Assembly (NCBI RefSeq): GCF_964204645.1
Contig: NC_134027.1
Location: 13,424,485 to 13,488,484, forward strand
Source of the DNA: Tubulanus polymorphus
Taxonomy: Eukaryota > Animalia > Nemertea
DNA length: 64,000 nucleotides
Direction: 5' to 3'
How positions within the stretch are numbered: position 1 is the first letter of the stretch; every line of letters begins with the position of its first letter. Below are positions 12,318 through 47,813 of the stretch, one piece after another. The notes beneath the pieces were generated by a model. That model ran no database searches. It was not told where the DNA came from and was given only the letters and a program-made list of their open reading frames with translations. The translations under genes were made by a program, and so were the position numbers.

Positions 12318-12425
12318 ATGGCGAACTTATAACAGTTGATCGTCGTGCCCAGCATCGAATCGGACAAAGAGAAAAATTGAGTTTTTACGACAAGAAATTA
12401 GCCAACATTATGTATAACTGTAACG
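12318..12425 (+). CDS. Host astacin-family metalloprotease exon (end of catalytic domain)
   Basis: IGQREKLSFYDKKLANIMYNC; TTTCTAG acceptor and GTAAGG donor; phase-1 splice keeps frame with the previous exon. Confidence 0.87.
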
Positions 12426-12866: not shown

Positions 12867-14088
12867 ATGGAAGCAAATAAGAAGTACTACTGTTCAACAT
12901 GTAAAATTAATATAGATAAATCTCAAAAAGCAAGGCATAATAAAACTAAGACACATTTAGAAAATGAATTGAAATTAGAATATAAAGATGATATATTAGA
13001 AACTAAATTAGACCAGATTATTAAACCTGAAAATCATATTCTTACAGAAAAGTTAATGGTTACTCAGGAAGATAAATTTAATAATGTAGTGCATTATACA
13101 ATGTTAAAAATCTATTTGAATCAAGGAATGATTCTAAAAAAAGTGCATAGATATATATCATTTAGTCAATCTAAATGGTTAGAAAATATATAGATTTTAA
13201 CACCAAACAGAGAACTAAAGCTAAAACTGATTTTGAGAAAGATTTTTATCAAGTTCATGAATATTGCGTTCTATGGTAAAACTTGCGAGAATATTAGAAA
13301 TAGAAATGATATTGAGTTAGTTAGTAATGGTAAAAGAATTAGACATTTACAAACATATCCTAAGTTCATTGGTAACAGAATATTTGATGAAAATTTAGCC
13401 GCAGTTAAAATGAGGATAACTTCTATGAAATTTAATAAACCAATCTACGTTGGCGCTTCAGTTTTAGAAATATCAAAACTATTAATTTATGAATTTTACT
13501 ATAACGTATTACAACCTCATTTTGGAGAAAAGCATATAGAAATCTTATATTTTGATACCGATAGTTACTTATTAAAGATCAAAACTAATTACATAACAGA
13601 TGATTTGATAACATTAAAACATCATTTTGATTTTAGTAACTATCCTAAAACTCATCAATTGTTTAACAATGATAATAAAAAGGTGTCCGGTAAATTCAAA
13701 GATGAATAAGGTGGTGAAGAAATGATAGAGTTCATTGGAATTCGATCTAAAATGTATAGTTATAGAACTAAAGAACATGAAGCTAAAAAGTTAAAAAGGA
13801 ATTACAAAAAGCGTAGTAGAAAAAATCATTCATTTCAAAGATTACATCAATTGTATATTCAATGAAGAAGTTAGAAAACATAAGATGAAATGTTTAAGAT
13901 CTGAGTACCACGAGATGTTTATTGAAGAGATAGAGAAGATAAGTTTGAATCCTTTCGATGATAAAAGATATATTTTAGATGATGGTATACACACAGTCGC
14001 GTATGGTTGCAATTTAGATGAATACTTAAACTTTAAAAGAGAAGAAACAAAAGAGAATGAGATTATGAAAAGGATTCTAACATGTTAA
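12867..14088 (+). pseudogene. Protein-primed DNA polymerase B remnant, intein-free, large internal deletion
   Basis: N-terminal Zn finger joined to the C-terminal part; K.MN..YGKT motif B and uninterrupted YFDTDS motif C at 13548-13565. Confidence 0.92.
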
Positions 14089-23084: not shown

Positions 23085-23337
23085 AGTTTATATTCATAGG
23101 GAAATTGAAGCCTCAGAAGTAATTTTGAACCTTTATTACTTTTTAATTTATTCTTATATTCATCATGTAATTCAGTAGGTATAATTTGATTTTCTGCCAA
23201 TGATTGTTGCATAGATTTTCTATCTTTATTGTAGAATTAAACTAAAAATCTTATATTCTCTCTAAAGTCTTTAACAATTGAACTATATTTTTGATTTAAA
23301 ACCCAAGTTGTTATCCCAAAATGTCTCCCAGAGAAAA
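23085..23337 (-). pseudogene. Packaging ATPase C-terminal remnant
   Basis: Minus strand reads GRHFGITTWVLNQKYSSIVKDFRENIRF, as in 1852-2460. Confidence 0.85.
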
Positions 23338-25322
23338 ACGTTTACGGCATTTACTAAGCCCAGATGGGTTATCTTCCTGAGGTTGGACTATGCCGTCTAT
23401 ATGACTCCAGTATGCGCGACGCAGCCCTTTTTGTACTATTCTCTTCAATGCCTTGAATTTAGCTTGATGAGAGTGGTGGCCACTTTTTATGTATTTCTTG
23501 TGGATACGGTCCCTCTTCTTGATGAGCTTCTTTAGTTCTATAGTAGTAACCCACGGCAGTCCATCCTTTGGTTTTGTGACTTTGTGGGGGACATTTTCTT
23601 GCACGATTTCTATGACCTTGTCTCTAAAGAAGTTCCACATGTTGGTGGCAGTACATCCTCTCCGATACATCTCCTGAACCCTGGCACTTATGGATGTCGC
23701 ACTTTCTTTCATCCTGGCCCACTTCGCATGACGATATAGTGGGACCTTCCTTGGTTTCTGTTTCAGTTTGATTGGAGCATAACTCACCTCCAAGAACACT
23801 ATGTCATGCTCAGCAATTGCTGGCATTGGTTCAATGCGCATTACTTTAGATGGGTCATTGGTTACTATGAGGTCAAGTATGTTGTCTCCTCTTGTGGGAA
23901 ATTCAACCATTTGTTGTAGTCCATTATCATCTAACATGTCACTGAAAAAAATGTGGTGGTTGACATAAGGGGCGCCTGGTTTGATGATCTTGTTGCACCA
24001 ATCCCAGCTTGGTAGATTAAAATCCCCGCCAACCAGGAGCACACCATTACGAATGGAGCATACACGATCCATGATTGTCTTCAGCTCGTTATATCCGTGT
24101 TAGTTCGATGTTTTTGGGTTGTAGAGCGAACAGAGGTAGAGTGACTTCTGGCCAGCCATCTCAATTTTGCACCACACAATCTCGCAATCAGTTTGGAGTT
24201 CCACAACTGGAGAACGAATGTAGGTGTTACTTACTGCAATCAGGACGCCACCACCTTCCATGTTTCTGTCCTTCCTAAATAGTTTAAAGCCAGGTGGAAA
24301 GACTTCATTGTCCTTCATGGAGTCGTCAAGCCATGTTTCGGTCCCTATTATGATATCAGGTTTGCAGCTTTCTACCAGGTTTTGAAGATGGGGCCTCTTG
24401 TTTCTCAGGTTTTGGTAGTTGACGTTGAGAATTTTCAGTGGCTTAGCGAGAGATGGACTAGGCCAGTCAGAGCGTCGGTTAGTTGATGCGTGTGCTGGTT
24501 TCATGTGTTTGGGGGTCGACGAAAGCGATGTATCTGCGATCAATGAATCGTCGCGGTCTGTTAGCGCTTGAAATCTGTTGTGAGTGCTAAGGTTCAGGTT
24601 GAAGCATACACTCGAGTAGTGCATTCCGTCACAGATCAGGCAGTTCCAGGCCACTGCACTATCAATCAGGTCATCATACGATCTGGTATGGACTTCCTGG
24701 CAGTTAGCGTGATACCATTGGTTACATGTATCGCATACTATACCCCTGTCCTCCCAGGTTACAGGTTTTTCGCATGTTCCACATGGATATAGCGATGCCG
24801 ATGAGGGCTGATCGCTGATGACTACAGCAGGTCCTGGATTTGGGTTCACATCGTTAGACAGTAGCAATAACAGGAGTGAGATCCGTAGAAACATACCTGT
24901 TCTGCTGCGCGTCTTGTTAGGTGAGTGTTGTGATAGGAATTCAGACAGACTACTCTTCAGTGTAAGCAGAGATGCAGCTTTGAACAGCAATTTTGTAGAG
25001 GCTCTACATTGAACAATACTTGTATCATTCCCGGTGGTGTCAGCCCTGTACAGTAGCAGGCGACAGATGAAAAGATTGAGTAGAAAACACAGTCCTATCA
25101 GTATCAGCATCGTGGCAATGTTTTTATCGTCTTTTCTCATCAACTACTAGTTAAGTTTCTCCCTTGAGTAATGGATTCTTATGCGAAACAGCCTTACCCA
25201 CATTTACAGTGACCGATAAAATACTTTTGGGACCCGAAAAGACTCCAAGATAGCAAAAATTTGTTGGAGTTATTTTGGAACAGCAGAGAAAACCAACATG
25301 TCCGCCGCGCGCATGCACCTCT
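23338..25322 (-). mobile_element. 5' part of a CR1/L2-type LINE (2A-like peptide, PHD finger, AP endonuclease) inside copy B
   Basis: ORFs 24100-25143 and 23311-24072 carry DVNPNPGP, C-x2-C PHD, GTETWL, GDFNLP and LDL motifs; GC content jumps at both junctions. Confidence 0.9.
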
Positions 25323-26234
25323 CTAGGTTCTTGTTAATATTTCTTCATCTTTTAAATCTTCTATCTTATATACAAAAGGTTTAGTTAATATTATGTTTTT
25401 AATCTTAAATATTTCTTCAGTAAAATTTGGAGTATAAAATGTTTTTCGATATTTAGATATTCTAACATGTTGTCCTGGTTTAAATTTTGGTTCTCCGAAA
25501 TCATGCGTTACAAATGCTCCATATAAATTGTTCCAAACTATTTCTGAGTTTTCTAATTTTCTAGCTTGTATAGGTTTCATACCAATACTTGAATGTTAAG
25601 AATTATTATAACCTCAACTAAATCATCTAACACATCGATATATTTATATGTTTTATTAGCTGTAAAATATTTCAACATTCTAGTTTTCAATGTTTTATTA
25701 AATCTTTCGATGATAGATGCTTTATTATCTGAGTGTGTTGAAAAATACGCTACATAGTTATCAGATAATAGTTTTTTAAAATCTTTATTATAAGATTCCT
25801 TACCTTCATCAAATTGTATCTTGCCTGGAATAGCTTCTTTAAATATAAATTTAAAAGCATTTTTTTCTTCTATACCAGTTTTATTTTTGATTGGAATTGA
25901 CCATGCGTATCTACTGAATATATCTATAATATTCAATATCCAAAAATATCCTTTGTTGTATTCTTCTAAGTTCTTCATATCTATCAAATCTGCTTGCCAT
26001 TGTTGATCAATATATGAAACCATAACTTTTCTTGTTAAATAATTTTTATCCATTTTCTTATGGATTTGATATGTTGGTTGATTTTGTAAGCATAATCTTA
26101 AATCACTATATTTTATATTTTCTTTGTCAGATTTTATTTTATCCCCTAATTCTGAAACACTAGAATATGATACTCTCTGGGTTATAATATAAATCTCTTA
26201 AATATTGTTCTTTTTTCATCTTATTTTAATCCAT
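25323..26234 (-). pseudogene. Polinton integrase, frameshifted and C-terminally truncated
   Basis: WQADLIDM, IDIFSRY, QFDEGKE and IIERFNKTLK motifs. Confidence 0.92.
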
Positions 26235-26239
26235 TAATA

Positions 26240-27139
26240 ATAATTTAGATTTAGTTTTGTGTATAATAGGTTTATAATCATCACTACTATCATCATTATC
26301 ATAATCATCATTATTATTAGATTTGGATTTATACTTATATTTATATATTACACCAGAGAATATAATAACTGTTACTAATCCAATTGTAATATATAATTAA
26401 TTATTACTTCCAGCATTAGAAGAATTGGATAAATTATTATTTGAACTAATATCAGGCGATTCATTTATATCAGTTAATTTCTTTTTTTTAGCTCTTTTCA
26501 ATTCTACAGATCTTTTACCTAATTCCCTTGCCCACTGTATTTGTTTTTCAGATCTAGGCTTTTTCTTAATATCATCACTCATTTATTGTACTTAATTTTT
26601 GTTCTGATTCAATATTATCTGATTTATTTTTATCTTTAGATACTATAGGTTTAATGTTAGAAAATGTTATAAATCCAGTAGACATTACTGTCATTATTCC
26701 ACCTAATTGAAATGAAGCGTACCCAACCCATTTCTGTAATTCTGTCATAACTAAGTAGTCATTTTTTAAATCAGTATATAGTTTATTTTCGTCATTGATT
26801 GGTATTATCCTGTTACATAATTTAGAATAACATTTTATGATACCATCCGAAATAGAGTCATTTATTCTAGCTAATCTAGCTTCTTCAGATATTTTGAAAT
26901 GTTTGATTACTTTATCAGGTTTCATGGCATCTAGTTCTTGATAAGTTATAATTCTATTTAAGAATTCTTTAGATTTTCCGCTGGCAATTAGTAACTCAAG
27001 ATGGTGCTTACAATATCAGTAGTACTCGTAATCAATATCATTATCAACTTGAGCACAATCAGTTACAACTGTATCTTTATTATCTGTAATACCTAAATCT
27101 TCAATTGTCTCTTCAATATCAGTACTATTTCTTTGACAT
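26240..27139 (-). pseudogene. Homologues of ORFs 2765-3370 and 3303-3671
   Basis: ARINDSISDG..LKNDYLVMTEL and KKPRSEKQIQWARELG; TAAATG starts at 27139 and 26582. Confidence 0.83.
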
Positions 27140-29432: not shown

Positions 29433-32400
29433 GGCTATGCGTGCACCTGACCGCAGCTGACTGTCAACTCGGTTATAGCGACCCCACGTGAACCCGGAAG
29501 TAATTCAATAGCGTGCGGCTTTGAATGGGGCACTTTGAACCGTTTTTCTCTTCTTCTGAATGAAAGTTGGCCATGCCGACTGAATGCTGTGTTCCGTTGT
29601 GCGGGCAGCTCGGAGGACACGCTTTCCCGAAAGATGAGACTACGTTGAAATTACCACTTCAGGTTTGTTTACGCTTAATGCTCACAACAGGTGTTACATA
29701 CAAGGTGTTACAATGAATGAAATCAATTTGATATGGGATATTTAGAAGATTTTTTAGCCTGATGGGTCGTTAAAAAAGTGTGAGTAGTCATTCTTCAATA
29801 ATCTGGTAGTTGGGCCTCATCAGGCCTAAAAAGTGAAATTCAAGTATCAGTTTACCGTCACCCGCCACGTGTTGACTGAGGACCGCTCTCGCATGAAAAC
29901 TTTCAATACGTACGTTTCAATTCTATGTTCTAAAAATCCGGAGAGTGGATTTATAATGTACAAAACTTATAAAAGTAATCGAGAAACGTTTTTTAAATCA
30001 ATATTTAATGTGTTGATTGCCTTTTGAGGTTTGGATTGCAATGTTTATGTCTTGAAATTTAGGGATTATTATCGGGTGTGACTGCTTTAAGTCAGCTAAC
30101 TTATTTTGATAGCTGAGCTACCACTAGCGCCATCCATTGAACAAAAGTTGAAGTGTTGACAAATTTTACTGCCAACGCTGCCATAATCATTGATTATGAC
30201 TAGTCTCAGTTGAAGTTTAATATATTTTTTGAATTATTCTATGTACAGGTACATCACCTCTGCAAAATCGACTGAAGAAAGATGCGGTACCATCAGTGTT
30301 TCCCTGGAATTCAGAAATTTCACCAGCAGGACTTAGCAGGAATGATAGATACATGAAACGTAAAAAGCTTCTGTCGGAACAAGAATCTGCGGCCAAAAAA
30401 CAATGTAAAGTGGCACTTTATCAAGTAGCAGCGCATGTAACAGTGGGGGAAAATTGTCAATGTAAGGACCTTTGAGTGAGAAATTGTGAAGATGCATTCC
30501 AAATTTACACTCAACAAAAAATAATCTTGCCTTTTCAGATCTTCCCGTTACTGTGTGTGAAGATTTGCCTGATTCTGCACCACCGATCACCAGTATTGGA
30601 GTACAGTGTGAAATTGTTTCGGTTTACTCTCCCTTGGACCATTACGGGAAAAATGATGACTGTTTTCATTACTACACTGGGTTGGAATCACGAAAGAAAT
30701 TTTATCTTGTGCTCAACGTGCTAGGATCTGCAGCTTACCAGTTGAACTACTATCAGGGAATAACACCGATTATATCTGTCGACGAACAATTTTTAAAATT
30801 AAGTGTCTCATTAAATTAAGGCTATATAAATGTGACTTTGAACTATCTCAAATGTTCAATATATCTGAAAAAAATTGTGCGGAACATTTGCATAACATGG
30901 ATTAATTTTATGGCCAATGAACTGGATGAAATCAATTGGTGGCCAGAGAAGAAGTTAGTTCAGTTTTACATGCCAACCGATTTTCCCATCAAATTATCAG
31001 GTACATTAATCTGTTTTACAGTCAAATTTATTTCCACATGTCGAACCTGCGCCTACATCATGTGTGTACATAAAAATTACCAAACGATGCCAATAAAATG
31101 CACTCGTCCATCTCAGGGTCTGTGAACATAGGGTGTTGAAAAAATCTGTTTTGAGTGGTCGTATGGAGTATTCTAGAGTGTGAAGCTAATTCATTTAATT
31201 AAAAAGGCTAATGTTCAGTTGCATTCTCTAGTTACAGTATATGCCATTTCTGCAGTTGTGAGAACCAGATAATCCATACGCTGCTGAAAATGACCTTATG
31301 TACATGAAAAAATCTGGTGTTAAGGAATTTTTAATTAGGGAAAAGGTAAGATAATCATAAAATACATGTTTTTGCTCATTATGACGGCAGTGGAACCTCA
31401 TTATAACGAACTCATGAACGGAATATAATGTTTTATTTTTCAGTCAGCAATACTGTTTGGTCAAGATGGGTACACCTAATTTCATTTTTCTGACTTAATT
31501 TTAGATTTTACCAGGATCCGTGTCTGATACAGATATAGAAGTAATAGAGAATGCTACACGTTGGCAATCTACAAACAAGACTTGGATTTCTTCAAGACTG
31601 AAACGCATGACAGCATCCTCATTTGGAAGAATATGTAAAGCCACTGCTGCCACTGATTTAAAAAAAAACTAGCATCTGATTTATGTTCCCCGCAGCCAGA
31701 ACTCAGCGTTTCATCCATCGTACATGGGAGAAAATACGAATCAACAGCTATCACAAAGTTTGAGTCAGTGTTTGGCGTTAAAGTTAACAAATGTGGATTG
31801 TATATTTCAAAGGACAGGCCGTATATAGCTGCATCTCCTGATGGTACGATTGACTCATTGATACATTGATTGAAGTTAAACGCCTTATGCCGCACGCAAT
31901 CAAGCTATTTACGAGTTAACTGTAGCGTATTTGATAAACGAAAATGGCTCACTCGAACTGAAGAAAGATAAACCCTACTATTACCAAGTTCAAGGACAGT
32001 TATTTTGCACAAATGCAACAACGTGTTATTTTATTATTTTTACATTTAAAGACATGAAAGTGATAAAAGTTATCCTGGAAGTCTTTGTCCAGGATCAGAT
32101 GTTCCAAGAATTAGATTTTTTTTCGATGTATATTTCAAAGATGCTGTGCTGGAGCGGTACTTCTTCACAAATTATTCAAAATATATGTAAATGCATTATT
32201 GCTGAAATATGTCTTTATCCTGTCTATGCATCTCGTGAAACAATAACAAGTAATTTAAAATTACAGAAATAGAAACAAATTATTTTTTGATTATGCTTCC
32301 AGCCATCACTGTTTTCGTATAGTTCATTGGATGTGTTAAGATCTTGAAGGTTTTAGCAAGTCCAATGATTCTCAATGTGGTTCAAGTACATGTAAAACAA

Positions 32401-33618: not shown

Positions 33619-33704
33619 AAAGTGTATCCTGTTCTCGCGATTTAAAGCAAAAAATCGAATAAATACCTTTCGATCAGCTACTTTTTTCTCCCAGACACTA
33701 TAAC

Positions 33705-33797
33705 AGTAATTGGAATATCAGGGGTTCAGATCAGAGGACGAGAGGACGAGAGACCACTCATCACCACAAGTAATTTTTTTTCCTAATAAATGGGAGA
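33705..33797 (+). repeat. Left TIR of copy C
   Basis: Reverse complement of 46314-46406. Confidence 0.97.
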
Positions 33798-36700
33798 GAA
33801 TGAACACCAACCAGAAAATAGTAATGTTAATAAAAATCAATATTATTGCCAATGTTGTAAAAAATACGTCGATACATCTAATAAAACACGACATGAAAAA
33901 ACTGCAAATCATATAAAAAATGTAATAGATTTTGAAACTCCAGAAAATTCCAATGAAAGAAAAGAAAGATTAGAAAATATGAATGTAGATGAAATAAAAT
34001 GTGAAGTTTGTAATGAATTTATAGTAAAAAGGAATTATAATAGACATCTCGAATCACAAAAACACCATCAAAATTTGAGTAATAATGTTTTAGGAAAAGA
34101 TAAACCTCAACAAGTAAAAAAACCAACTTCAAAAACTAAATCCATTTCAAATAAACCTTACATGGAAAATGTTAGAAATTATATCGATTCACTAGAAATA
34201 AAAGATACAATTAAAATTTTAGAAACATCACGCAGTAAAATTGGACCTGCAGCTATTATATTTAGATTTTTTATAGGTACAACAATAGAAGATTATAGTA
34301 AATTTAATGAAATAATAGAAAAAATACTAGATTTGATAACAGATGTTGAATATCCAAAAATTAGTATCTCTGGGAAAGTAAGTTTTTTAAAGTCAGGAGA
34401 TAAAATGGATTATAATATTCAAACACACTCTGAAGAAATAATTTCAAAAACACAAATAAAAGAGAAGTTAGAAAAAATATTTAATGAATTTAAACGTCAT
34501 ATTGAAGAAAGATATTTTGAGGGTTCTGGCTTAACATTGAATGAAATTATATATTTAGATTTAAATGTTTATAATACAAAAAGAAATAAAACATCAAAAA
34601 GTAATAAAATGTTTAAAAATGATTCAAACTTTACAACAGAAAAGGATATCAAAGCATCATCTTATATTAAATTACCATTTACAACAAAAGCAGTAATAAA
34701 TGTTCAAAATGAAGATAATAAATGTTTTCTATGGTCAATTATTAGTTGCTTACATCCAACACAAGAAAATGTGCGTAGAATAACAGATTATCGGAAATAT
34801 GAAACATTATATAAAATTGATCAATATCCAGTAACTATAAAAATGATTCCTAAAATAGAAAAAGTTAATAATTTAAAAATAAATGTATTCGAATTAATGC
34901 AATTACCAAAGACAAAAGGTGAAAATATTAAAGATTATACATTGGAAGCTTTATATTTAACAGAATATTATGATGATGAAAATGCTATAGATTTGTTATA
35001 TTACAAAAAAGATGAAAATGAACATTATATGTGGTTAAAACAAATTGATTTATTCTTTAGAACAGAAAGTGATCACCATAATAAAATGTATCTATGTAGA
35101 AAATGTTTATCTAAATTTATGACTGAGAATACATTATTAAAACATAAAGAATTATGTGAGAATAAAGATTTTTGTAAATTAATAATGCCAACAGAAAAAG
35201 ATTATAAATTGAAATTTACTAATCATAAATTGAAGTTGAAAATGATGATAAAACTGATTGGGAAAGCGCAATTGCGAGTTTAAAAGATGAAGCACCAATT
35301 GGTTATTTCTTTGTAGTTGATTTAGAATATCCTGATAAAATAAAGTTTAAAACAAGAAACTTACCTTATTGCCCAGAACATTAAACTGTAGATGATAGTT
35401 ATTTAAGTGAATACCAGAAGAAAATAAAACCGAAAGATCATGTTTTTACAGAAAAATTAATAATAAATTCATATATATTGTTCATTATAGAATGTTAAAA
35501 TTTTATCTAAAACAAGGAATGAAATTAAAGAAAGTACATAGATATATTGAATTTAATCAATCGAAGTGGTTAGAAAAATATATAGATTTCAATACTCAAC
35601 AGAGAACCATATCAAAAACAGATTTTGAAAAAGATTTCTTCAAATTAATGAATAATAGTTTTTATGGTAAAACATGTGAAAATATTAGAAATAGAAATGA
35701 TATTGAATTAGTAAATAATTCTGAAAGATTAAGACATTTACAATCAAGCCCTAGACATTTAGGAAATAAAAGATTTGAAGATTATTTAACAGCAGTTAAA
35801 TTAAAAAGAACGTCAATGAAATTTAATAAACCTATATTCATTGGTTCAACTGTTTTAGAAGTATCAAAATTATTAATGTATGATTTTTATTATAATGTTG
35901 TACAACCACTTTTTGGGGAAAAGCATATTGAAATATTATATTTTGATTCTGTTACAGCTGACACCCCAATATTATTAAAATGTTATGATAAAATATTGAT
36001 AAGAAGAATTTCAGAAATAATTCCAAAACAAAATGAATGTTATATTTCATATGGTGAAAAAGAATTAATACAAATAAATGGTTTAATGGATGTTTGGACA
36101 AGAAATGGATGGAAAAAATTAAAGAATATTATTAGGCATAAAACAAATAAGAAAATCTATAGAGTTAGAACTAAATTAGGATTTGTAGATGTTACAGAAG
36201 ATCATAATTTAATTAAACGAAATGGCGATGAAATAAAACCAACTGATAAAAAAATTGGAGATGAATCATTACATAAAAGATTTTTCCAAAGAATGAATCA
36301 TATGCCATTTGATGAAATAATTGATAATATTTATAATATAGAACCCGAAACATTAGAAGAAAAAGAATATTTTATCAAAGGATTTCATGGGAGATGGTTC
36401 AGCAGGTGTGTATAATTATGTTTGGGGTAATAAATATTGTTGGTATTTATGCAATCAAGACTTAAAATTATTAGAAAGAATAAAGAAATTCTGTGAAGAA
36501 GTTTATCCAAATAAAACATTTAAAATCATAGATGTTATGAAATCATCGCAATGTTATAGAATACATGTGAATAATCCTAAAGATTTTGCTATAAAATATA
36601 ATGACGAATTCTATATTCATGCAATAGTGAAAAGTAATACTTCAACAAAAGAAAAGATAGTTCCAGATTATGTATTAAATGCAAAAAATAATTTTAGAAA

Positions 36701-37465
36701 ATGGTTCTTCATTGGATTCTACGCAGCAGATGGTCCAAAAAGTTTCAAAAACCGCAAAACGATATCTTAAGCTCAAAAAGGAAAAGTTGCTATATCAGGA
36801 TTGAATATATTATGCAATTCATTGGGTTTTAATATGAATATTGGATTGATTAAATCTAAACCAAATTGCTTTAATTTAAGCCATGTAGAAAATGAGTTAA
36901 CAGAAGAAGTTTAGGATTTATTTGAAATATATAACCCATCAGATTATGTTTATGATTTATCAACTGAAGATGGTACATTTAACTGTGGATTTCCATTAAT
37001 AGCAGTCAATACTGACGCCTACATACTAAAAATCAAGACAAATGACATAACAAAGACTTAAAAACATTAAAACATCATTTTGATTTTAGCAATTATCCCA
37101 AAGATCATGAACTATTTAGCAATGATAATAAAAAGATTCCTGGTAAATTTAAAGATGAACTAGGGGGTGATGAAATGATTGAATTTTTTGGGATAAGAAG
37201 TAAAATGTATAGTTATAGAACAAAAGATCATGAAGCTAAAAAGTTAAAAGGAATAACAAAACATGTGGTTGATAAACATATAGAATTTCAAGATTATATA
37301 AAGTGTTTATATAACTCAATTGTAATGAAACATAAAATGAATTGTTTAAGATCAGAAGATCACGAGATGTACATTAATGAAGTTGAAAAAACTAGTTTAA
37401 ATCCATTTGATGATAAAAGGCATATTTTAGATGATGGTATAAAAACATTACCTTATGGTTATTAA
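33790..37465 (+). pseudogene. Protein-primed DNA polymerase B with intein; disrupted
   Basis: N-terminal Zn fingers, SSYIKLP..INVQNEDNKCFLW, KLMNNSFYGKT, split YFD|TDA, SKMY, DDKR. About 1.37 kb deleted at 35232 relative to copy D. Confidence 0.95.
35948..37010 (+). other. Intein with LAGLIDADG homing endonuclease in pPolB motif C
   Basis: Starts SVTADTP; block B VTEDH; GF(F)MGDG and GFYAADG; block F YVYDLSTEDGTF; ends LIAVN followed by Thr. One frameshift and one stop. Confidence 0.95.
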
Positions 37466-38776
37466 AACATAAAATCAATATCATCATACTCGAAATCACT
37501 ATTGGCTTCTTCATTTTCATTTAATTGTTTAGGTTCTTCTTCCATTTCATTTTTCTCATTTAAATTAAGTTCTATCTTGTTCCACATTTCATCTCGCTCT
37601 CTTTGTTTCTTTTTGTTTGTTAATTCATCAAATGGAATTATAATATGTAGGTTTAAATAATTTACAATCTTATTTAAAAAGAATTCATAATAATTAATTG
37701 AATCTGTTATTCTATTTTCCAAATAATACATTAATATTTGTTTGAATATTTTTTTTTTATTTTTCATATCTTCTGTTAATTTAGGTTTTTCATAATAATC
37801 GTTAAATAATAAATATAAATACATTTTCTTTTGTTTTGTGTTAAATGTTGACGGAATAATTGTTTTTATAATATCTTTTTTTGTTATTTCACCATTTTTA
37901 TTTTCTATCATTTTCATTTTTTCAAGCCATTGCATATATTCTGGTGTATGATCTTCTATAGAAAATATTTTAAAAATTTCATCAAGATAATTTAATTTTG
38001 GATCTATGAGAAAATTTCTAGTTTTTTCTTCACCCAATAAATTCTTTTGCCATCCACATTCATTACAAAATAACACAGTACCTTCTTGCCTTAAGGTCGC
38101 ATAACTACATTGTGGGCATTTTTGTTTATAATTTATTGGTAATAGATCTTCATTAAGCTCTTGGTATTTTCTTACGTTTTCTTTATGTTTTATTGTTCTA
38201 TTATGTAGATTTGAATTACTTGTTGTAATAATCAATTTACAATATTTACAATAATGTTTTTCTTGTTAATTCATTATATTGTTTTTCTAACTTTTCAACT
38301 GTTTCTTTATTATCTGGTAACGTTTTCTCATATTTTATGTTTTCTAATAAATTATCTTTTCTTTCATTGAATTCAGTTTCAAATTTATTAGAAATTTTAT
38401 CTATATGTGCTTTACGAAATTGATGATTCTCCCAATCTTCTGTATTTTCAGGGCTATATTTCATTCGACAAGGCTCACAGAAATGATCTTTTATATTATC
38501 CTTATCATAGAATAAGAAAGGTCTTTTCCAAATACCTTCAGGTTCAACTTCAACAGAATTACTATTACTTTCATTACTATCAACATTAGCCGTTGCGCCA
38601 TTAATTCTACACTTCTCTGAATGTTTTTTAACATAATTTCTTGAGAATGATTTATTACATTTTGGACAGTTTAGTTTAGGGGGTTTATAATTTTCATCAT
38701 GTTTTTTCACATGTCGAGCCATATTACTTTTTCTTAGAAGTTAACCACAAATTTCGCATGGTATCTTCTCATCCAT
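37462..38776 (-). pseudogene. Multi-Zn-finger protein with C-terminal poxvirus A2/VLTF3-like late transcription factor domain
   Basis: CPQC..FCNEC ribbon, RNFLIDPKLNYL, IFKQIL..SINY(Y)EFFLNKI, EMWNKI. TAAATG start at 38776; one stop and a 2-nt frameshift (in frame in copy D). Confidence 0.75.
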
Positions 38777-38844
38777 TTATTAAGGAAAAATTTTATTAAA
38801 ATTAATTTTTAGTGATGAGCGGTAATTTTTTCATGTTATAAATA

Positions 38845-39606
38845 ATGGTAGAATTAAAAGAATACAGAATATTTGTTGATTCTAGAAGGCTTACAAATTA
38901 TAAATCTCATAATTTACTAGTACAATTAGATAGAGAATTCAAGAATTGTGTAGATTAAAAATTAGTTAATATAAGTTTATGTAATTCTTTTTACAATATA
39001 TCGAATAAAACTATTGAACATAGAGCCTTTTTAATTTTTGATAAAGGTAAAAATGAATGGTCCTATATATATTTAAAACCGGGGTTATATAATTTAGATA
39101 CATTAGCACAAGAAATTAATAGAAAAGCCTGGCACAAGTTAGGTAGTAGTTCTGGGTTTAGTATTAGATTTTTAAAAAGTGAGAGTTCTGATAGAATAAA
39201 GATAAGGTTGTCTAATAGTGAAAAACATAAATTTATGGTAAAAAAACCTATAGCTAAACTGTTAGGAATTCTTCCAGATAGATCTTTTAAAAATATTGAC
39301 GCTACTACACCAAACTTAATACCTTACACACATTTCTATATTTATTGCAATTTAATCGATCCTACAAAAACATTCGAAGCAACTAAAGATATAACTTGTA
39401 ATTCTGGTTTACTAAACATTTTACCATTGAAGAATGTTAAAGAATTTGGAACGCAAATAAATTATAATTTAACAGAATGTGATTTCAAACCATGCATTCC
39501 TCGTTTTAATAATTTTAGATTAGAAATTAGAAATCATAATGGATACTTAATTGATTTAAATAATTTCCCTGTAATTTATGAATTAGTTATAAGATGTAGA
39601 GAGTAA
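38845..39606 (+). pseudogene. Minor capsid (penton) protein, one frameshift
   Basis: IFVDSR..LCNSFYNIS N-terminus; FYIYCNL..ILPL..INY..LEIRNHNGYLIDLN C-terminus, typical of Polinton pentons. Confidence 0.8.
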
Positions 39607-39623
39607 TTTTTTTCACTATATAA

Positions 39624-39965
39624 ATGAATATAACTGTTGGACCGAGTTTATGTTTTGGGTTTGATTTTAAACATGGTAAAGAAATGAGAATTAAACTAAA
39701 TGATGTAATTACTGATATAAAAAGTAAATCATTTAACAATGAATCAATGATTAATAAAGAAAATTATAATATAGAAAAAGTAATTGATTTAATTAAATCA
39801 CCTTTAGAATATTATGAATTAAATGAAGATGGAATTATTGATGATATTAAAAACATATTAACCAAAATATATGATAATCATAAAAGTAGTAATGAAATAA
39901 ATGTTGAATTAATCATAAATAAGTTAACTAAATATTTTGATGATAGTAATTTTTTTGATAAATAA
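39624..39965 (+). CDS. Polinton hypothetical protein
   Basis: Conserved with 16801-17133; TAAATG start. Confidence 0.8.
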   Translation: MNITVGPSLCFGFDFKHGKEMRIKLNDVITDIKSKSFNNESMINKENYNIEKVIDLIKSPLEYYELNEDGIIDDIKNILTKIYDNHKSSNEINVELIINKLTKYFDDSNFFDK

Positions 39966-40187
39966 ATGAGTGATAATAAGTGGATAATAACTGGATTATA
40001 TAATGGCGCATTACTATCAGTTGGAACTGTTGGTTATTCAATGGTATTGAAAAAAGTATTTAAAATGGGAAGTGTTAATGTTGATAGATTTGATATAAAT
40101 GATATTTTAAAATTAACATTAGCAGTTACTTTATCTAATTTAACTATTGATTATTTAGAAAAACAAAAATATATTCCTCCCATATAA
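39966..40187 (+). CDS. Small hydrophobic Polinton protein
   Basis: Two hydrophobic stretches; homologue at 17141-17387. Confidence 0.78.
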   Translation: MSDNKWIITGLYNGALLSVGTVGYSMVLKKVFKMGSVNVDRFDINDILKLTLAVTLSNLTIDYLEKQKYIPPI

Positions 40188-40211
40188 ATGCGTAATTATT
40201 TTACTAAATAA

Positions 40212-40634
40212 ATGGCTTCTGCAATTATAACTATTATAGGATCGGCTATTGTTAACGCTTTGGCATTTACTGGTGGCGGATATTTATTTAAACATATTGA
40301 TAAAAATAGTTCATTAGGAGAACAAAGAAGACATAACTTAGCGTTAGAGAAATACAATAAAGCTGCAGAAGAATATAGAGAAAAGGGACAAAACTATATG
40401 GATTACATCAATAAAGAATTATATGGTCAGAAGATTTCACATAGAGATTTTCAATCAGTTGATGATGCAATGAGTTAATATAACTCAGTAACCAATAAAG
40501 AAAAATTACATCTACATAAACCTACAATATCAGATTATTATACCCCAAGTAAAGAACAACAGAAATATGAAATAATATGGATTTTAGGTGGAACAGTTAT
40601 TGTTATATTTGTTGCTTATAAGTTTACTAATTAG
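40212..40634 (+). pseudogene. Membrane protein with N- and C-terminal hydrophobic helices (frameshift at ~40477)
   Basis: MASAIITIIGSAIVNALAFTGG; the homologue at 17388-17810 shows the C-terminal continuation. Confidence 0.75.
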
Positions 40635-40654
40635 TAATTTTTTTTGCTAAATAG

Positions 40655-41088
40655 ATGGAAGATAAAGTTGATAATATTGATATTATTCCTCATGATATAA
40701 ATAAAACTAAACTAAAAACATATTTAGAAAAACAAATATTAGAATTTGAAAGTGACTTAAAGATAAAAAAGAAAAAATATTTAAAAAGTAAAATTATATA
40801 TTATTTGATTATAAGTGGTTCGGTTACAATTAGTTCTGTAATAACATTTCTAGCAATATTCAGTCCATTAACACCTTTAGCTATATCAATTGGTGTATTA
40901 GGATTAAGTTCAAGTGTTTTAACTGGTATAAGTTCAAAATTAAATATAAAAAGTAATAAAGAAAAAATTAAAACTAATATAAAGAAATTAATAAATTAAA
41001 GAATACACTAGATTATATAATAAGTTTAAATGGTCATATAACAGTTGAAGAACAAGATAAATTATTAAAAGAATTAATAAATTATTAA
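40655..41088 (+). CDS. Two-TM Polinton protein (probable frameshift near 40980)
   Basis: IIYYLIISGSVTISSVITFLAIF and LAISIGVLGLSSSVLTGI; homologue starts at 17836. Confidence 0.72.
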
Positions 41089-41104
41089 TTTTTTAATTAT
41101 ATAA

Positions 41105-42496
41105 ATGGTAGATAGTTTTCCAAAAGCTTTCCAATATAATAAATCAATTAAATATAATATTCCAGCAATAGATTTTAATAAAGATATTACATATAGAAAT
41201 GAAGTTTTAGATTCATTAACTAATTTAGAAATTTATGTTACTGAAACTAATAATTTTAATGCAAAGATGGAAAATATATTTCATGTATATTTAATTAATT
41301 TTAAAAAATTGAAAGATGAAAAACAATGGTTATTAAAATCTAATATGAAGTATTGGCAGAACCAATTAAATTTTGCTGTTTATTGTGCAACAACAGGTTG
41401 TGGAATTAGTTGGAATGATCATTTGAATAATTCTAAATATAAATTAATTCAAAGTTTATTTAGATTTCATACATACTTTCAAATAAGAATAATATTAAAT
41501 GAATTAGAGTGCGCTTTACCAGGATCTAGGTATTTTAAAGAATTAGATAATAATATTAATTTAACAAAGTTTTATAAAATTTGTAATGAATTTAATATAG
41601 ATATAAATAATTCTGATTTTAGAACAAAAATTGGAACAATAAGATCACTTCCTTGCCCTAAAAAGACTGCAGAATATTGTGCACTTCCCATACCATCTAA
41701 TAGTTATCTTTATAATATCTATAGTAATAAATTAGGTTATGGTAAAATAGAAACTAAGGATTTAGAAACATTAAATTTCAATAAATTACCGACATTTTAT
41801 GATAATTTAAAACAAGAAAACAATAATGGTTGGGTTTATTTCATTTTAGAAAATAATGAAGGTTTTACAAAATCAGGTATACAAAGAATAAATCAATCTA
41901 TTAGAACTTATTTGATATGTATTTTAGGTGCGCAAGTTGAAACAAGATCCCCGATAATTGGAAATTTGAATACATCATTTGATACGCAGAAACAATTCAA
42001 AGTATTATTTGAAGATTCAATTCATAATGATAAAAATAGATCGATTCCAGAAAACATTGTAAGATATCAAAATTATTTAGATACATCACATATTAGATTA
42101 AATTATTGTATAGGCCCTAATCTATTCATTATTTCTAATGATTTAGTATTAAAGATGGGAAACATAATTGGTTACAATAATCTAATTAAAACTGCAACAA
42201 TAGATAATTCATTTGGATTAAATGATATAAATAAAAAGATTATTACTTCTCCAAAATTAATGGAAGGTGAAAAAAATAAAAAACACATTCAATCAACAGA
42301 AACTAAAACTAAGAATATCAAATTGGATAATGATTCCAAAATAAAAGATTACAATACTACAGAAAATATTAAAATTGATAATATTCAACATAATATAATT
42401 AAAACTGATAATGATAATAAATTACATGAAAATACTAAATTAGCTTTAACTTGTATAGGAATTGTTATAGGAGGAATATTATATTTTGAATTTTAA
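41105..42496 (+). CDS. Polinton conserved hypothetical protein with C-terminal TM anchor
   Basis: Intact 463-aa ORF with WQNQLNFAVYCATTGCGIS and YLICILGAQVETRS; decayed homologue at 18040-18713. Confidence 0.85.
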   Translation: MVDSFPKAFQYNKSIKYNIPAIDFNKDITYRNEVLDSLTNLEIYVTETNNFNAKMENIFHVYLINFKKLKDEKQWLLKSNMKYWQNQLNFAVYCATTGCGISWNDHLNNSKYKLIQSLFRFHTYFQIRIILNELECALPGSRYFKELDNNINLTKFYKICNEFNIDINNSDFRTKIGTIRSLPCPKKTAEYCALPIPSNSYLYNIYSNKLGYGKIETKDLETLNFNKLPTFYDNLKQENNNGWVYFILENNEGFTKSGIQRINQSIRTYLICILGAQVETRSPIIGNLNTSFDTQKQFKVLFEDSIHNDKNRSIPENIVRYQNYLDTSHIRLNYCIGPNLFIISNDLVLKMGNIIGYNNLIKTATIDNSFGLNDINKKIITSPKLMEGEKNKKHIQSTETKTKNIKLDNDSKIKDYNTTENIKIDNIQHNIIKTDNDNKLHENTKLALTCIGIVIGGILYFEF

Positions 42497-42512
42497 TTTT
42501 TTTATGATATAA

Positions 42513-43973
42513 ATGGATGTAGAAGGTGGAGAAGATATTGGAATGGATAATTTTGATGAACCTGGTATAACTGATGAACAACCACCTGATTTTGATGAAA
42601 CAAGTTTCAGTAACGAAAATGAAACAGCATATAATTCTAATTTAGCAAGACCTGATACTAATGAATATGTTAATAAAGCACGTTCAAGATTGGACATTGA
42701 AAATGAAAATCCAGATTTAATGAAAAAAGAACTAGAATATGACGAATTAACTGATAAATTCAAACCAATATTAGAAAAATCTGGATTCAATATAACAAAT
42801 AAAGGTGTGAATTATTTAGTAAAAGATGTGAAATATTTAAATGGTGATTATTATTGGCATTTGAAAGATTACTATTATTTTAAGATATCTTCTAATAAAA
42901 GTCTCGATAAAATGATAACAAAACCAACTTTAATTAAATTAGAACAATCTAGAATTAAGAAAATCAACAATGATGTTATAACTGATGTTACAGAACAAGA
43001 GATAAATCAAAATAGAATAGAATTTAATCGAAGAAATAATGATTTTTTGAAGATAATTAGTGAAAATTTAGAACCAGAAACAATTCCTAAAGAAGATATA
43101 ACTTCCAAAACTAGTAAACTTAAATCAAATAAAGTTCAAACTGAAAAACTTTTACCGAAGGGATTACTTGATGCAACAAAACAAGAATTAGAAGATTTAG
43201 ATATATTTTCTGGTAAAGCAATAAGAGAAATTGAAAGTATAAGACATGCATCTGATAAAATTGCGCATGAAAAAGAAATAAGAGATATTAAAATTAGATT
43301 TTTAGAAAAAGAATTAACTGATAAAAATAAAGAAATAGAACAATTAAAGTCTGATTTAGATCATCAAGTAATTAATGAAATAGAATATAGGCAAAAAGAA
43401 TTACGTTTAGAAAAAGAAAAAGATGATTTAGAATATAACATAGAATTACAAAAAGAAGAAATTAAATTATTATTAAAATCATATGATTATAATATAAAAA
43501 GATTAAAAGATGTTTTTAAAAGATATCTAATAAAACCAAATTCTAAAATATCATTGAAAGATAGAATAGAATTATTATTTAAGTTTGAAGGAATCACAAT
43601 TCTTTCAATTCTAACAGCTGTAACTATGTTATTTACAACAATAGGTTTAGCAATATCAAATGCTTTGAAATCTACCCCTACTCCCAATAAACCAGATAAA
43701 CCCCCGAATGATAATAATTCTATACAAGATAAAGTTAAAGATGGTTTAAAGAAATTAGTAAAATATTTATGGGAACTATCTAAAAAATCTGCTGCAGCAT
43801 TGCCAGGAGTTATTGCATCAATTGTTGGTTTTATATTGAAATCTGCAGGAAACATTATTAACTTTGCTGCTGAACATATTATTTTATTTTTAATTACAGT
43901 TGTAAGTGCTATCATTTTTGGGTTAGTGAATATGATATCAAAAAGATATCAAGAAAAAAATGATAAAAAATAA
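42513..43973 (+). CDS. Coiled-coil protein with C-terminal hydrophobic helices
   Basis: Intact 486-aa ORF: acidic N-terminus, long heptad region, two to three hydrophobic segments; homologue at 18732-20196. Confidence 0.85.
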   Translation: MDVEGGEDIGMDNFDEPGITDEQPPDFDETSFSNENETAYNSNLARPDTNEYVNKARSRLDIENENPDLMKKELEYDELTDKFKPILEKSGFNITNKGVNYLVKDVKYLNGDYYWHLKDYYYFKISSNKSLDKMITKPTLIKLEQSRIKKINNDVITDVTEQEINQNRIEFNRRNNDFLKIISENLEPETIPKEDITSKTSKLKSNKVQTEKLLPKGLLDATKQELEDLDIFSGKAIREIESIRHASDKIAHEKEIRDIKIRFLEKELTDKNKEIEQLKSDLDHQVINEIEYRQKELRLEKEKDDLEYNIELQKEEIKLLLKSYDYNIKRLKDVFKRYLIKPNSKISLKDRIELLFKFEGITILSILTAVTMLFTTIGLAISNALKSTPTPNKPDKPPNDNNSIQDKVKDGLKKLVKYLWELSKKSAAALPGVIASIVGFILKSAGNIINFAAEHIILFLITVVSAIIFGLVNMISKRYQEKNDKK

Positions 43974-43997
43974 ATAATTAATTTTTTTGTTTAATAA

Positions 43998-45245
43998 ATG
44001 AGTGGGAGTTATATAAGTCCTTCTAAGAATCATAGAATATCTAATGCTATTAAAGCAGAAAGATTACATCATATAATTACTCATAACCCTTCTAATATTA
44101 ATCCCGATGAAACTTTATATGTTAGAATTCCTCGATTAACACAAAATACTTTTTATGTTCCAAATAGTATTTATTTATCAGCTGATATAAAAGTAATTGG
44201 TCATGATAATAATTATGTTGTTGATAATGTTGGGAGATATTTGATTAAAAAATTAACTATAAAGATTGGTCCAGAAACAGTTTTCTCATTAGATGATTAT
44301 AATTTATTTATGCATTATAAAGATTTATGGTTAACTAAAGAAAATAGAAATGATATGATATTTCAAGGCATCCAATCAGAAAACCATAATAAATTAAGAT
44401 CTGAAGCCAATAATGCAGTAGTAACTAGTGCCGCAGATAATTTGATAAAAAAGATTTATGGAAGCAAATATAAAATTCCATTATACTTTGAATTGATAAA
44501 TAACAATGCGCCTTTATATAAATATGCAATTCAAGAAGATGTTATATTCGAAATAACATTTGCTCCTGTTAATGAAATTGTAATATCTAGCGTTAATAAA
44601 GATATGGGTTATAAATTATCGAATATATGTTTAGAATATGATACAGTAACTGATGAAAATATTTCAAGTATAATTCAAACTCAATACAATCAAGGATTTT
44701 CATTATTATATGATTACATTGATAAATTTAAAACTGTAACTATTAATGCAAATGATGAAATAATTAATGAGAATATTAACTTCCCAAGAAGATCTATTAA
44801 AGGTATATTAATATTTTTTACCATTGCAACATATACTAATGGCGCAATACAGGTTGATAAGTATTATAATCCTGAAATAACAAAAGTAGAAATAACTATC
44901 GAAGGAATAGCAAATAAAATATTTTGTCAAGGAATGAGAATGATAGATCAGTGGCCAGAAATTAGAAAACATTTTATGAATGAAAAAGTGAAATCATTTG
45001 AAAATTGTAATATTAATCAAATTGATTATTATACCGGCAATAAATATGCATTATGGTTAGATTTTAGAACAACAGAGGATAATTCATTACATGGTTCTGG
45101 AAAAAAACTACAGAACACTAAACATGGAATACAATTATTCATGAAAAAGAAAAGAGGAGACAAAAATTTTAAAATGCACATTTATATTATATCTGATGCC
45201 CAATTAAATATTGTAAATTCACAGTTAGATAGTATTCAATATTAG
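43998..45245 (+). CDS. Major capsid protein (double jelly-roll, inferred)
   Basis: Intact 415-aa beta-rich ORF, highly conserved across copies A, B and C, next to integrase/ATPase. Confidence 0.82.
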   Translation: MSGSYISPSKNHRISNAIKAERLHHIITHNPSNINPDETLYVRIPRLTQNTFYVPNSIYLSADIKVIGHDNNYVVDNVGRYLIKKLTIKIGPETVFSLDDYNLFMHYKDLWLTKENRNDMIFQGIQSENHNKLRSEANNAVVTSAADNLIKKIYGSKYKIPLYFELINNNAPLYKYAIQEDVIFEITFAPVNEIVISSVNKDMGYKLSNICLEYDTVTDENISSIIQTQYNQGFSLLYDYIDKFKTVTINANDEIINENINFPRRSIKGILIFFTIATYTNGAIQVDKYYNPEITKVEITIEGIANKIFCQGMRMIDQWPEIRKHFMNEKVKSFENCNINQIDYYTGNKYALWLDFRTTEDNSLHGSGKKLQNTKHGIQLFMKKKRGDKNFKMHIYIISDAQLNIVNSQLDSIQY

Positions 45246-45275
45246 AAATATAAAGTTAAAATTAACGATATATAA

Positions 45276-45880
45276 ATTAGAGGTAAAAAAACTCCTAATA
45301 CTAAAGAACAATATTTAAGAAATTTATATTACAACCCTGAGAGTTCGGTTGCTTATTCTTCTACCAAAAATATATGGCGTAAAGTAAAACAAGATAAATT
45401 AGATAAGACAATCCCACACAATTTAGTTAAATATAAAGATATAAATGAATTTATGTTAGAACAACCAACGTACACAACACATAAAAACATTGTTAGAAAA
45501 TATATAAAACTCGTAAAACTATGGTAAGTTATGTAGATCAACAGTGGCAAGGAGATTTAATTGATATGAAAAATGTTAAGAAAGATAATGATGATTATTG
45601 GTGGTTATTGAATATAATTGATATTTTTAGTCGTTATGTATGGAGTTTCCCACTTTATAGAAAAGATGCTGTACAAACATCAAATGTTTTAAGAAAATTT
45701 CTTTCGGTTGATAAACTAAAACCAGAAAAAATACAATTTGATGATGGAAAAGAGTTTGATAATTCACTTGTTCATGAACTCTTAGATAATCATAATATTA
45801 AATATTTTTCAACAAAATCGGATAAAAAAGCAGCAGTTGATGAACGATTTAATAGAACTTTAAGAACAATATTCAAATGA
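45276..45880 (+). pseudogene. Integrase, truncated by internal deletion
   Basis: Nearly identical to 766-1353. At ~45868 it joins sequence equivalent to ~4638 of copy A. Confidence 0.92.
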
Positions 45881-45996
45881 AGCACTCATAATAATAATAA
45901 TAACATGTAACAGATGTTTGACTGTATGATTGTAGTTGTTTATAAAACGACTAAGGTCATTTTGGATTCTAGATATTCATTATTTTTATTTCTTAT

Positions 45997-46321
45997 TTAA
46001 TCAACAATTTCTAAATCATGATGACCGTCTTCATTTTTCCCATGATAGATTATTTTAAATCCTACTAAATCTTTCGTTCCTCTGTACTCAATGAAACCCA
46101 TTTATCAGGTAAAAATACTTTAAATTCTCGCGATGTACTAACATTACAGTAGCTTAAATTTGCTGATACTTTCTCTCCGTATTTAGTTTTTATCTTTTCT
46201 AATTTCAATATTTTATGTTCAATTTCTTCTGTAACATCAATTAACTTTTTTATTTCAAATTGTTTTTTGCTGGTTTAAGTCTGTTATTTATTGTTGCTAA
46301 GAATGCTTTTCTATCTCCCAT
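45997..46321 (-). pseudogene. Terminal small ORF, frameshifted copy of 4761-5087
   Basis: Near-identical DNA to 4761-5087. Confidence 0.88.
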
Positions 46322-46406
46322 TTATTAGGAAAAAAAATTACTTGTGGTGATGAGTGGTGTCTCGTCCTCTCGTCCTCTGATCTGAACCCCTGATATTCCA
46401 ATTACT
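46314..46406 (-). repeat. Right TIR of copy C
   Basis: Reverse complement of 33705-33797. Confidence 0.97.
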
Positions 46407-47813
46407 TATAACAACCCGAAATCGAAGCTCTGAGCAAGCGTTAAATCCGCACAGACTTCGAACAATCCATGAGTTTAAACAGGCCATCGCGAATCGATTT
46501 TGTATAACAACCGCCACTGCAGGCGAAGCGCATACTGCCAAGCGCGCTATAACCGAGTTGCTTAGCAGCGCCGCGGTGCGGAATAGTACGCCGACTCCCC
46601 ATTGATATATTATCCATGATTTTAAGAATTCATCTAAACAACCCAATAAATTAGATAGTGTTTCTGAATGCGCTTCTTTACTGAATAAATGTGATACTTT
46701 TGATCTTAAACATTGATATCTTTCTCTAATATATTCTGTCATATAATCATTATAATGTTCTCTATTATCTTTTTTTCCAATTTCTCATATATTCTGGATT
46801 ATTTGCTCGCCATTGTTTTTTCAATTCTTTACATTTTTCTAGATTATTTGTATAATATTGTTTACTATTTTGATTATGACAGCTTTATCTCGTAAACCAT
46901 CATTACCAATCTTACGTTTATAATAGTCTGTAAATGGCTTACTTTTTGGTTTACCTATGTCAGCGATATGATGTTGGCATTGAGCCAATTCATGTAAAAT
47001 CGCGGTACGTTTTTTTATGTGAGCATTTCTTTTATTGGTTCTCGGCTTAAACGACGTATAATCGATGCGATTGAAGACATGGCGAACCTCCGTCGATGAC
47101 ATGGTCAACTGAGTTAAAATTCTACGAAAAACTGTTTTTGGCGGGAAAATTCTTTGCTCTCGCGTATAAAATTGCAATAACCTCGATTGGGGGCGTCGTC
47201 TCTACGAGCGAATGGGATTGGCTGTTTTTGGGATTTACGGGGAATTCCGGCGCTACTAAAATAATTATGGGAAAGCCGTAGAATGGCGTACGTTTTATTG
47301 GACTAGGTGCCGTATACGTGCGAATTTCAAATGCTCATTGCTGGTGAGGATGTAATTATTTCACACATCCGCCATAGGTATTGTTTCATTTTAATACCCG
47401 GTGATTGTTTCGATTGAAATTGAGGTGTAAGCGAATATTCACTCATACGAGGCCTCCACATGCACGCGGAGTGTTACACTACACACACAAGCTCGTACAG
47501 TACACTACTCAAGGTGATGCTGTAATGCGTCCACCACGTCTGACATGAAAATAGGCTGAATAATCGTAGGAGAAGATGAGCGCTGTGTTTTCTGTTCGAT
47601 AGAATTTGTAATAAATTGTAATTTCTTATGACCTGAAAATACTAAGCAGCAAACTATAAGGTCTGTCGAGGTCTGAATATTGTAGTGGTAAATTCCAGGA
47701 TTTTAAACGATCTAATAGCCGATTTCTTCTGTACCGGTATTTTAGCTTCCGCGACCAAGGAAGACGTTTCCAAGACCTCAGCCACCCTCTGATGTGACAT
47801 CATATGAATTTTA

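Follow-up and report, generated by a model that had tools for sequence, protein, structure and literature searches.

A pol-c intein in the protein-primed DNA polymerase of an integrated Polinton, probably captured from a giant virus

The DNA analyzed here, a 64,000-nucleotide stretch of contig NC_134027.1 (referred to as the window, with all coordinates counted from its first letter), carries Polinton copies designated A to D, and the element under study is an intein that interrupts the protein-primed family B DNA polymerase (pPolB) of copies C and D. Copy C lies at 33705–46406 on the forward strand, bounded by terminal inverted repeats of 93 nt (99%) and by an exact target-site duplication of 6 bp (TATAAC, 33699–33704 and 46407–46412); the carrier of the intein is an integrated Polinton. 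The pPolB of copy C is a pseudogene (33790–37465, forward strand) that is without about 1.4 kb present in copy D. Motif C of this polymerase is split as YFD / TDA. The N-side (YFD) occupies 35939–35947, the insert starts with SVTADTP at 35948 and ends in a terminal Asn at 37010, and the C-side (TDAY, 37011–37022, forward strand as are all parts of this gene) resumes right after it with the +1 Thr and the second motif-C Asp, a residue with an established role in family B polymerases. The insert measures 1,063 nt, or about 354 codons. This agrees with the original prediction, made from the letters alone, that about 355 codons are inserted between YFD and TDA in copies C and D.

Motifs and profiles divide the insert of copy C into a Hint N-part, a two-motif LAGLIDADG endonuclease and a Hint C-part. 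Block B (TEDH) was located at 36194–36205, the first LAGLIDADG motif (block C) at 36377–36398, the second (block E, YAADG) at 36720–36734, and blocks F and G (YVYD, NCGFPL and the terminal Asn) at 36942–37010. One frameshift near 36382 runs through the first LAGLIDADG motif and stops are found at 36768 and 36912; as the polymerase is missing about 1.4 kb besides these breaks, copy C is dead twice over. In copy D, the pPolB core (PF03175, 60 bits) is found at 60138–61607 and the intein at 61624–62552, both on the forward strand; 263 codons of this intein are open, followed by a frame change and a deletion that leaves it about 135 nt shorter than that of copy C. TEDH, MGDGS, YAADG and YVYD are all present in both copies, which are 96% identical across the first 786 nt of the intein (flanks 97%). 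Copy B, absent from the original prediction, has an uninterrupted motif C (YFD|TDSY, 13548–13568, forward strand) and represents the empty allele, with 80% identity to copy C on both flanks of the insertion site. The GC content of the intein (25.5%) matches that of the extein (24.6%), as expected of an old insert. The two intein copies of the window are best explained as dead relics of a recently active family. A chance open reading frame or an assembly artefact is ruled out by the two window copies, the reads of a second study and the unbroken homologues.

The insert is almost certainly an intein. The TIGR01445 model of the intein N-terminus scored 31.6 bits in copy C and 25.8 bits in copy D (cut-off 24.5). 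In the alignment, Ser1, TEDH, both LAGLIDADG acidic residues, the block D Lys, the block F Asp and the last Asn were found in 7/7 Polinton rows, and the class 1 residue set (Ser1, block B TxxH, block F Asp, last Asn, and Ser, Thr or Cys at +1) in copies C and D and in 5/5 aligned Polinton relatives; the Ser1, TEDH, two LAGLIDADG motifs, block F and Asn followed by Thr that had been picked out from the letters alone were all recovered. Compared with empty alleles, the insert is in frame and lies at exactly the motif C site (a length difference of 346 aa between the database relatives P0032 and P0160, and of 339 aa between P0167 and P0170), and the out-of-frame state of the window inteins comes from later damage. 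The fold was modelled on the relative P0004 (49% identical to the open part of copy D) and not on the window copies, using a 74-row alignment led by P0004 (predicted local distance difference test, pLDDT = 91.2; predicted template modelling score, pTM = 0.90). The top six PDB entries matched by this model in Foldseek were all endonuclease-bearing inteins (TliVMA best, E = 3.7e-17), with I-DmoI after them, and sequence profiles matched PI-PkoII, I-DmoI and PI-SceI. A single-sequence fold of the P0030 intein (pLDDT 40) was not used. The Hint domain on which the original prediction depended is present by both measures, with TIGR01445 above its cut-off in C and D and the P0004 fold in agreement. 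The best explanation for its class is a pol-c intein with a two-motif LAGLIDADG domain, predicted to splice out of pPolB. A Hedgehog-type domain was also considered and is ruled out by the endonuclease and the existence of empty alleles. Hedgehog (Hog) domains share with the insert a Hint fold in an animal genome. They differ, as far as the accessible text of PMC7765530 and PMC5784728 describes them, in C-terminal autoprocessing and in having neither an endonuclease nor an empty allele.

Searches with the open part of copy D returned 29 proteins of similar length, 283 longer proteins, among them full intein-bearing polymerases with E down to 1e-99 (best 120 of 283 listed), and 1,814 representatives (best 150 of 1,814 listed). 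When 289 distinct matches were classified, 239 best fitted RNA-primed family B polymerase (PolB) references, 14 fitted pPolB and 36 neither (fragments, topoisomerases). The earlier assignment to the pol-c site (YxD|TD), with kin in RNA-primed giant-virus PolBs, is upheld. Among the matches listed, the best relatives are Polinton-type pPolBs with unbroken inteins (P0030, 62%; P0032, 49%; P0031, 48%; P0033, 47%). Six matches (P0035, P0125, P0147, P0149, P0364 and P0400) are type II topoisomerases with related inteins, one of them at TEGD|SAA, a site resembling YGD|TDS, and the intein family seems to change host genes. P0036 is a 1,483-aa PolB with a weak match to a Pol delta-type C4 zinc finger and a pol-c intein 42–44% identical to the open part of copy D; this enzyme may be a Pol delta of cellular origin or a viral polymerase of the delta-like kind.

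Filled and empty alleles were found side by side among these relatives. The P0032 cluster has 136 members, and the 15 listed comprise 7 filled, 5 empty and 3 fragments. In the P0033 cluster, P0167 is filled and P0170 empty, with identical extein residues at 571/577 and 169/169 positions, and the pair is a precise intein gain or loss. Between P0032 and P0160, 1028/1041 residues are identical on the N side, 16/20 directly before the site, and 15/20 then 17/20 after it, a dip of the kind that co-converted flanks would leave. The N-exteins of six unbroken filled relatives of P0032 are 98.8–99.5% identical to it, which suggests that filled elements multiplied recently, although empty helper elements could provide the polymerase in trans for filled ones. 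The best 120 pPolBs listed include 4 filled alleles, 100 scored empty (P0446 at the wrong motif) and 16 unscorable, and the three pPolBs closest to the window polymerase (71%) among the matches listed are all empty. In an extein tree of 115 rows, the 9 filled ones do not group together, and their distribution requires 9 changes. Identity between Polinton families is 49–71% for the endonuclease and 42–68% for the Hint N-part, and no mini-intein was found among full-length Polinton alleles (339–354 aa). An endonuclease no less conserved than the Hint N-part is expected only where cutting is still under selection, and homing between the many nuclear copies is therefore the most likely mode of persistence. 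Many empty pPolB alleles read YxD|CDS, D|TDG or D|TDA in place of D|TDS and are candidate cut-resistant sites. An endonuclease VII-type domain (PF02945), separate from the intein, is present in pPolBs P0032, P0160, P0170 and P0417. P0418, a pPolB 59% identical to that of the window, bears the source label Sulfurimonas sp.; its DNA is probably of eukaryotic or viral origin and was binned with a bacterium.

Intein phylogenies were built with FastTree and by maximum likelihood (ML) on 89 and 57 rows. Five near-identical Polinton inteins were dropped from the FastTree analysis, the two ML subsets were hand-chosen, and the extein tree excludes P0033 and exteins <250 aa. Each of the three trees groups the Polinton inteins in a single clade (1.0 in FastTree; 100/99 in ML with 89 rows; 100/100 in ML with 57 rows) and nests it inside giant-virus intein diversity. 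In the 57-row tree, rooted on 11 archaeal pol-c inteins, the sister group of the Polinton clade (97/87) consists of inteins of RNA-primed PolBs, and the two groups have a C-terminal NxGFPL motif in common. In IMG/VR, 13/15 matches to this motif bear the label GVMAG, which we take to denote a giant-virus genome bin. From the same database 159 loci were kept, and the 77 that were translated all start at a YGD-type site; single-protein searches found nothing in IMG/VR and, in metagenome contigs, only 2 distant, unrelated inteins at 21%.

The nearest relatives outside Polintons are uncultured GVMAG-labelled giant-virus inteins (40–47% identity). Named viral structures near the top of the fold search were a phycodnavirus PolB fragment (33%) and the Megavirus courdo11 PolB (28%), and archaeal pol-c alleles are only about 23–29% identical. 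The order within the Polinton intein clade (P0033; P0030 + window; P0031 + P0032) is the same as in the extein tree, and between-family pairwise identity is alike for intein and extein (about 40–65%), which together point to one old entry followed by co-divergence. The transfer, so far as the trees and identities indicate, looks old and single and not recent. The term "Mimivirus-type" of the original prediction holds in that the allele is the same, and fits the allele, not the donor, given the closer uncultured kin. A recent transfer from Mimivirus is ruled out by the deep co-divergence, the closer uncultured relatives and the matched GC content.

The DNA flanking the intein is spliced eukaryotic nuclear DNA. 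A GT..AG intron of 113 nt separates two host astacin exons (12081–12203 and 12317–12425, forward strand), and a single X9 run contig joins them across it without mismatch. The species label of X9 is the same as that of four runs containing the intein, and one whole-genome shotgun (WGS) run of a second study covers the intein and both astacin exons. PDB matches of the astacin are weak (meprin, E = 0.23). The following astacin exon, seen in X9, lies outside the window. In the non-Polinton stretches 147/207 frames of at least 45 aa were scanned, and only astacin, YqaJ and a weak SAM match were found. Remnants of long interspersed nuclear elements (LINEs) lie amid the Polinton copies at 5890–8955 (endonuclease and reverse transcriptase) and 23311–25143 (PHD finger and endonuclease), and a decayed DNA transposon with a YqaJ domain, which to us recalls ISL2EU elements, at 30200–32270. 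From the spliced astacin gene, the LINEs and the YqaJ transposon, and from the typical host range of such elements, the host is very likely an animal. A very high-copy repeat (12425–12830, depth about 2,900) begins about 20 nt past the second astacin exon; 78 reads switch to the opposite strand within it at 12726–12729, and it may be a palindromic non-autonomous element.

Copy number was calculated from 12% of WGS run X6 (second study). Depth across the intein was 131–257 (median 219, reads of at least 85% likeness) and depth in eight low-copy bins near the astacin gene was 2.3–8.4 (median 6.6, 90% likeness), a ratio that puts the filled copies at about 33 in a haploid genome whose size is roughly 300 Mb, and that is good to a factor of two at best. 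Reads unlike copy C made up 173/235 at the frameshift, 72/73 at the first stop and 156/165 at the second. The breaks of copy C are mostly private to it; that any single copy is whole does not follow. Another 80 reads skip the intein (45 and 35 at the two joints), and since their letters, compared by eye, resemble the 80%-identical family of copy B, they represent empty relatives and not necessarily empty copies of the C family.

The account favored here, at a probability of about 0.7, is that a pol-c intein was captured once, long ago, from a giant-virus PolB and has been kept by homing into intein-free Polinton copies. The direction from giant virus to Polinton is favored by the trees, not forced. 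Class 1 splicing would be performed by Ser1, block B, the last Asn and the +1 Thr and would restore a continuous motif C, and since the insert parts the two halves of that motif, the polymerase would, by what is established for family B polymerases, work only after splicing. The endonuclease would cut intein-free alleles at the site, and repair of the break on a filled template would bring the intein and short flanks across; the partners could be integrated copies or forms replicating in the same nucleus. The first entry may have been an insertion away from the usual target, at the matching conserved motif, in a cell that held both a Polinton and a giant virus, whether of an animal or of an earlier host. 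For the movement between a Nucleocytoviricota PolB and a protein-primed PolB that had been proposed, the best tree gives the direction from giant virus to Polinton and the alternative was not rejected; the co-infection included in that proposal is something we infer only, and it need not have taken place in an animal cell.

Several results weigh against this account or narrow it. In copy D, PF14890 scored 26.4 bits (cut-off 35.8) and PF14528 17.9 bits (cut-off 22.5); only unbroken relatives clear the cut-offs of these Pfam intein and LAGLIDADG models (P0032, 37.7 and 24.8). The penultimate residue is Val in copy C and Phe in copy D, not His, and in the relatives it is Ser (P0030), Lys (P0033) or His (P0004, P0031 and P0032); Lys is common at this position among giant-virus alleles, so a penultimate His is not required for the pol-c allele group. 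Splicing and cutting are predicted activities of the intein. In an approximately unbiased (AU) test, a tree in which all 39 inteins of RNA-primed viral polymerases were grouped together, apart from those of Polintons, was not rejected (ΔlnL = −18.1, p = 0.074), and the 89-row tree gave a different, weak immediate sister (90/78). Giant-virus sites differ from the empty site of copy B at 3–9 of 18 nt (16 loci), so the first jump would not have been ordinary homing and would have needed relaxed cutting or a chain of hosts, an argument made for Mimivirus and archaea in the accessible text of Ogata et al. (2005, PMC549080). The identity dip near the P0032/P0160 site also fits cut-resistant empty survivors or plain recombination. 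Finally, the near-identical filled and empty alleles come from database relatives, and homing within this genome itself does not follow from the intein-skipping reads, which resemble the family of copy B.

Three other explanations were weighed against capture and homing. It is unlikely that the intein is a passive passenger that entered once, still splices and has lost homing, with its patchiness left by vertical descent, precise loss and ordinary recombination. The same shape of the intein and extein trees, the minority of filled alleles (4 among the best 120 pPolBs listed) and the capacity of recombination alone to produce mosaic flanks agree with such a passenger, whereas the endonuclease is conserved like the splicing domain, with catalytic-type residues intact, in families only 38–65% identical in pPolB, mini-inteins are lacking among full-length Polinton alleles, and nine separate changes fall on the extein tree. 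More doubtful is a reversed direction, or a situation in which both are old, with the allele already in the pPolB lineage or drawn from a third source (phage, plasmid or archaeal virus). The AU result, the long branch to the archaeal root with its weak backbone, and the related topoisomerase inteins, by which the family changes host genes, leave room for it; both ML trees and FastTree nevertheless put the Polinton clade inside giant-virus diversity, the distinctive C-terminal motif is common to that clade and one viral subclade, matches fit RNA-primed PolBs (239/289) far more often than pPolBs (14), and archaeal pol-c alleles are distant.

It is very improbable that the intein is real but the host is some other eukaryote than an animal, or that the assembly is a chimera or contaminated. 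Astacin is the sole host gene in the 147 scanned frames, with its weak meprin match, which would suit such a host. Against it stand the exact target duplication of copy C, the runs of the same species label that cover the intein and the spliced astacin contig without mismatch, the second-study WGS run with both astacin exons and the intein, the LINEs (endonuclease, reverse transcriptase, PHD) and YqaJ transposon that flank the copies, and a depth implying a genome of roughly 300 Mb.

Other Polinton genes were annotated in the window. A probable major capsid protein of copy C (43998–45245, forward strand) is a weak call based on language-model neighbors only; its Atlas neighbors (0.97–0.98) include capsid clusters, yet recognition is below the tool threshold, and it has no Pfam match and no PDB sequence match. 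An integrase fragment of copy C (45497–45880, forward strand) lies inside a stretch 96% identical to copy A, in which the integrase (rve, PF00665, with a chromo domain) is at 766–1851 and an A32-type packaging ATPase (PF04665) at 1852–2460 on the forward strand. No packaging ATPase was seen in copy C. Neither an adenain-type protease nor an OTU domain had a Pfam match in the 32 frames scanned, with no further search aimed at either. An inverted remnant of another Polinton family was found at 25352–27038, 68–69% identical to the integrase region and adjoining open reading frame of copy A.

The placement of a known intein allele in a Polinton pPolB is real and apparently unreported. The literature searched yielded no report of an intein in Polintons, in pPolBs generally or in the genome of an animal, although supplements (PMC10710043, PMC5784728, PMC11161782), Repbase, InBase and subscription journals could hold one, and the word "intein" is absent from the accessible text of PMC10748475, PMC8502044 and PMC11131425. 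A 2021 review, in its accessible text, describes metazoan genomes as free of inteins, the basis for inteins as selective drug targets (PMC8529194); the corresponding text of a eukaryote-wide survey places inteins in fungi, algae, some protists and giant viruses (PMC5784728). The Mimivirus PolB intein, as given in the available text of Ogata et al. (2005, PMC549080), resembles the window element in its YxD|TD site, its LAGLIDADG domain, its length (351 vs. about 354 aa) and the residues at its ends (Ser1, the last Asn and the +1 Thr), and differs in its host, an RNA-primed giant-virus PolB rather than a protein-primed Polinton PolB in a nuclear genome. Archaeal pol-c inteins (Thermococcus, Methanocaldococcus and Woesearchaeota) share the site and the Ser...Asn|Thr ends, but are about 390 aa long and form a separate clade, at the low identity given above. 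The inteins of Klebsormidium, Tetrabaena and Hondaea (Gallot-Lavallee et al., 2023, PMC10710043) likewise reached the nucleus inside an endogenous virus polymerase, in algal and protist hosts; the words "polinton", "animal" and "metazoa" are absent from the main text of that article as accessed. HNH and VSR nuclease inserts in Polinton pPolBs (Jeong et al., 2023, PMC10748475; Krupovic et al., 2024, PMC11161782), as far as the accessible texts describe them, also place a nuclease domain within pPolB, and the HNH-type inserts have been suggested in the latter to stem from intein invasions. The window element differs from these in having a full splicing domain and in sitting in motif C, and "intein", "Hint" and "LAGLIDADG" are absent from the accessible main text of Jeong et al. 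P0032 combines an endonuclease VII-type domain and an intein.

The finding is an exception to the rule of no inteins in metazoan genomes, though one that belongs to an endogenous virus rather than to a gene of the host. It would also be a case of a pol-c intein exchanged between polymerases of the RNA-primed and the protein-primed kind, which have little in common beyond motif C. At slightly better than even odds, no true mobile intein precedes this one in animal nuclear DNA and none of any kind precedes it in protein-primed polymerases, and it acts as a natural homing drive that has run in Polintons since a single giant-virus capture; the ancestors of these animal Polintons would then have shared cells with Nucleocytoviricota, and splicing and homing would operate in animal germ lines. 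The intein may serve as a marker, dated by descent, of gene flow between giant viruses and Polintons, and bears on whether Polintons have a virophage-like phase. With its numerous copies, in which alleles of the filled, empty and altered-site types occur together, the family offers a rare multi-copy system for tests of the homing cycle.

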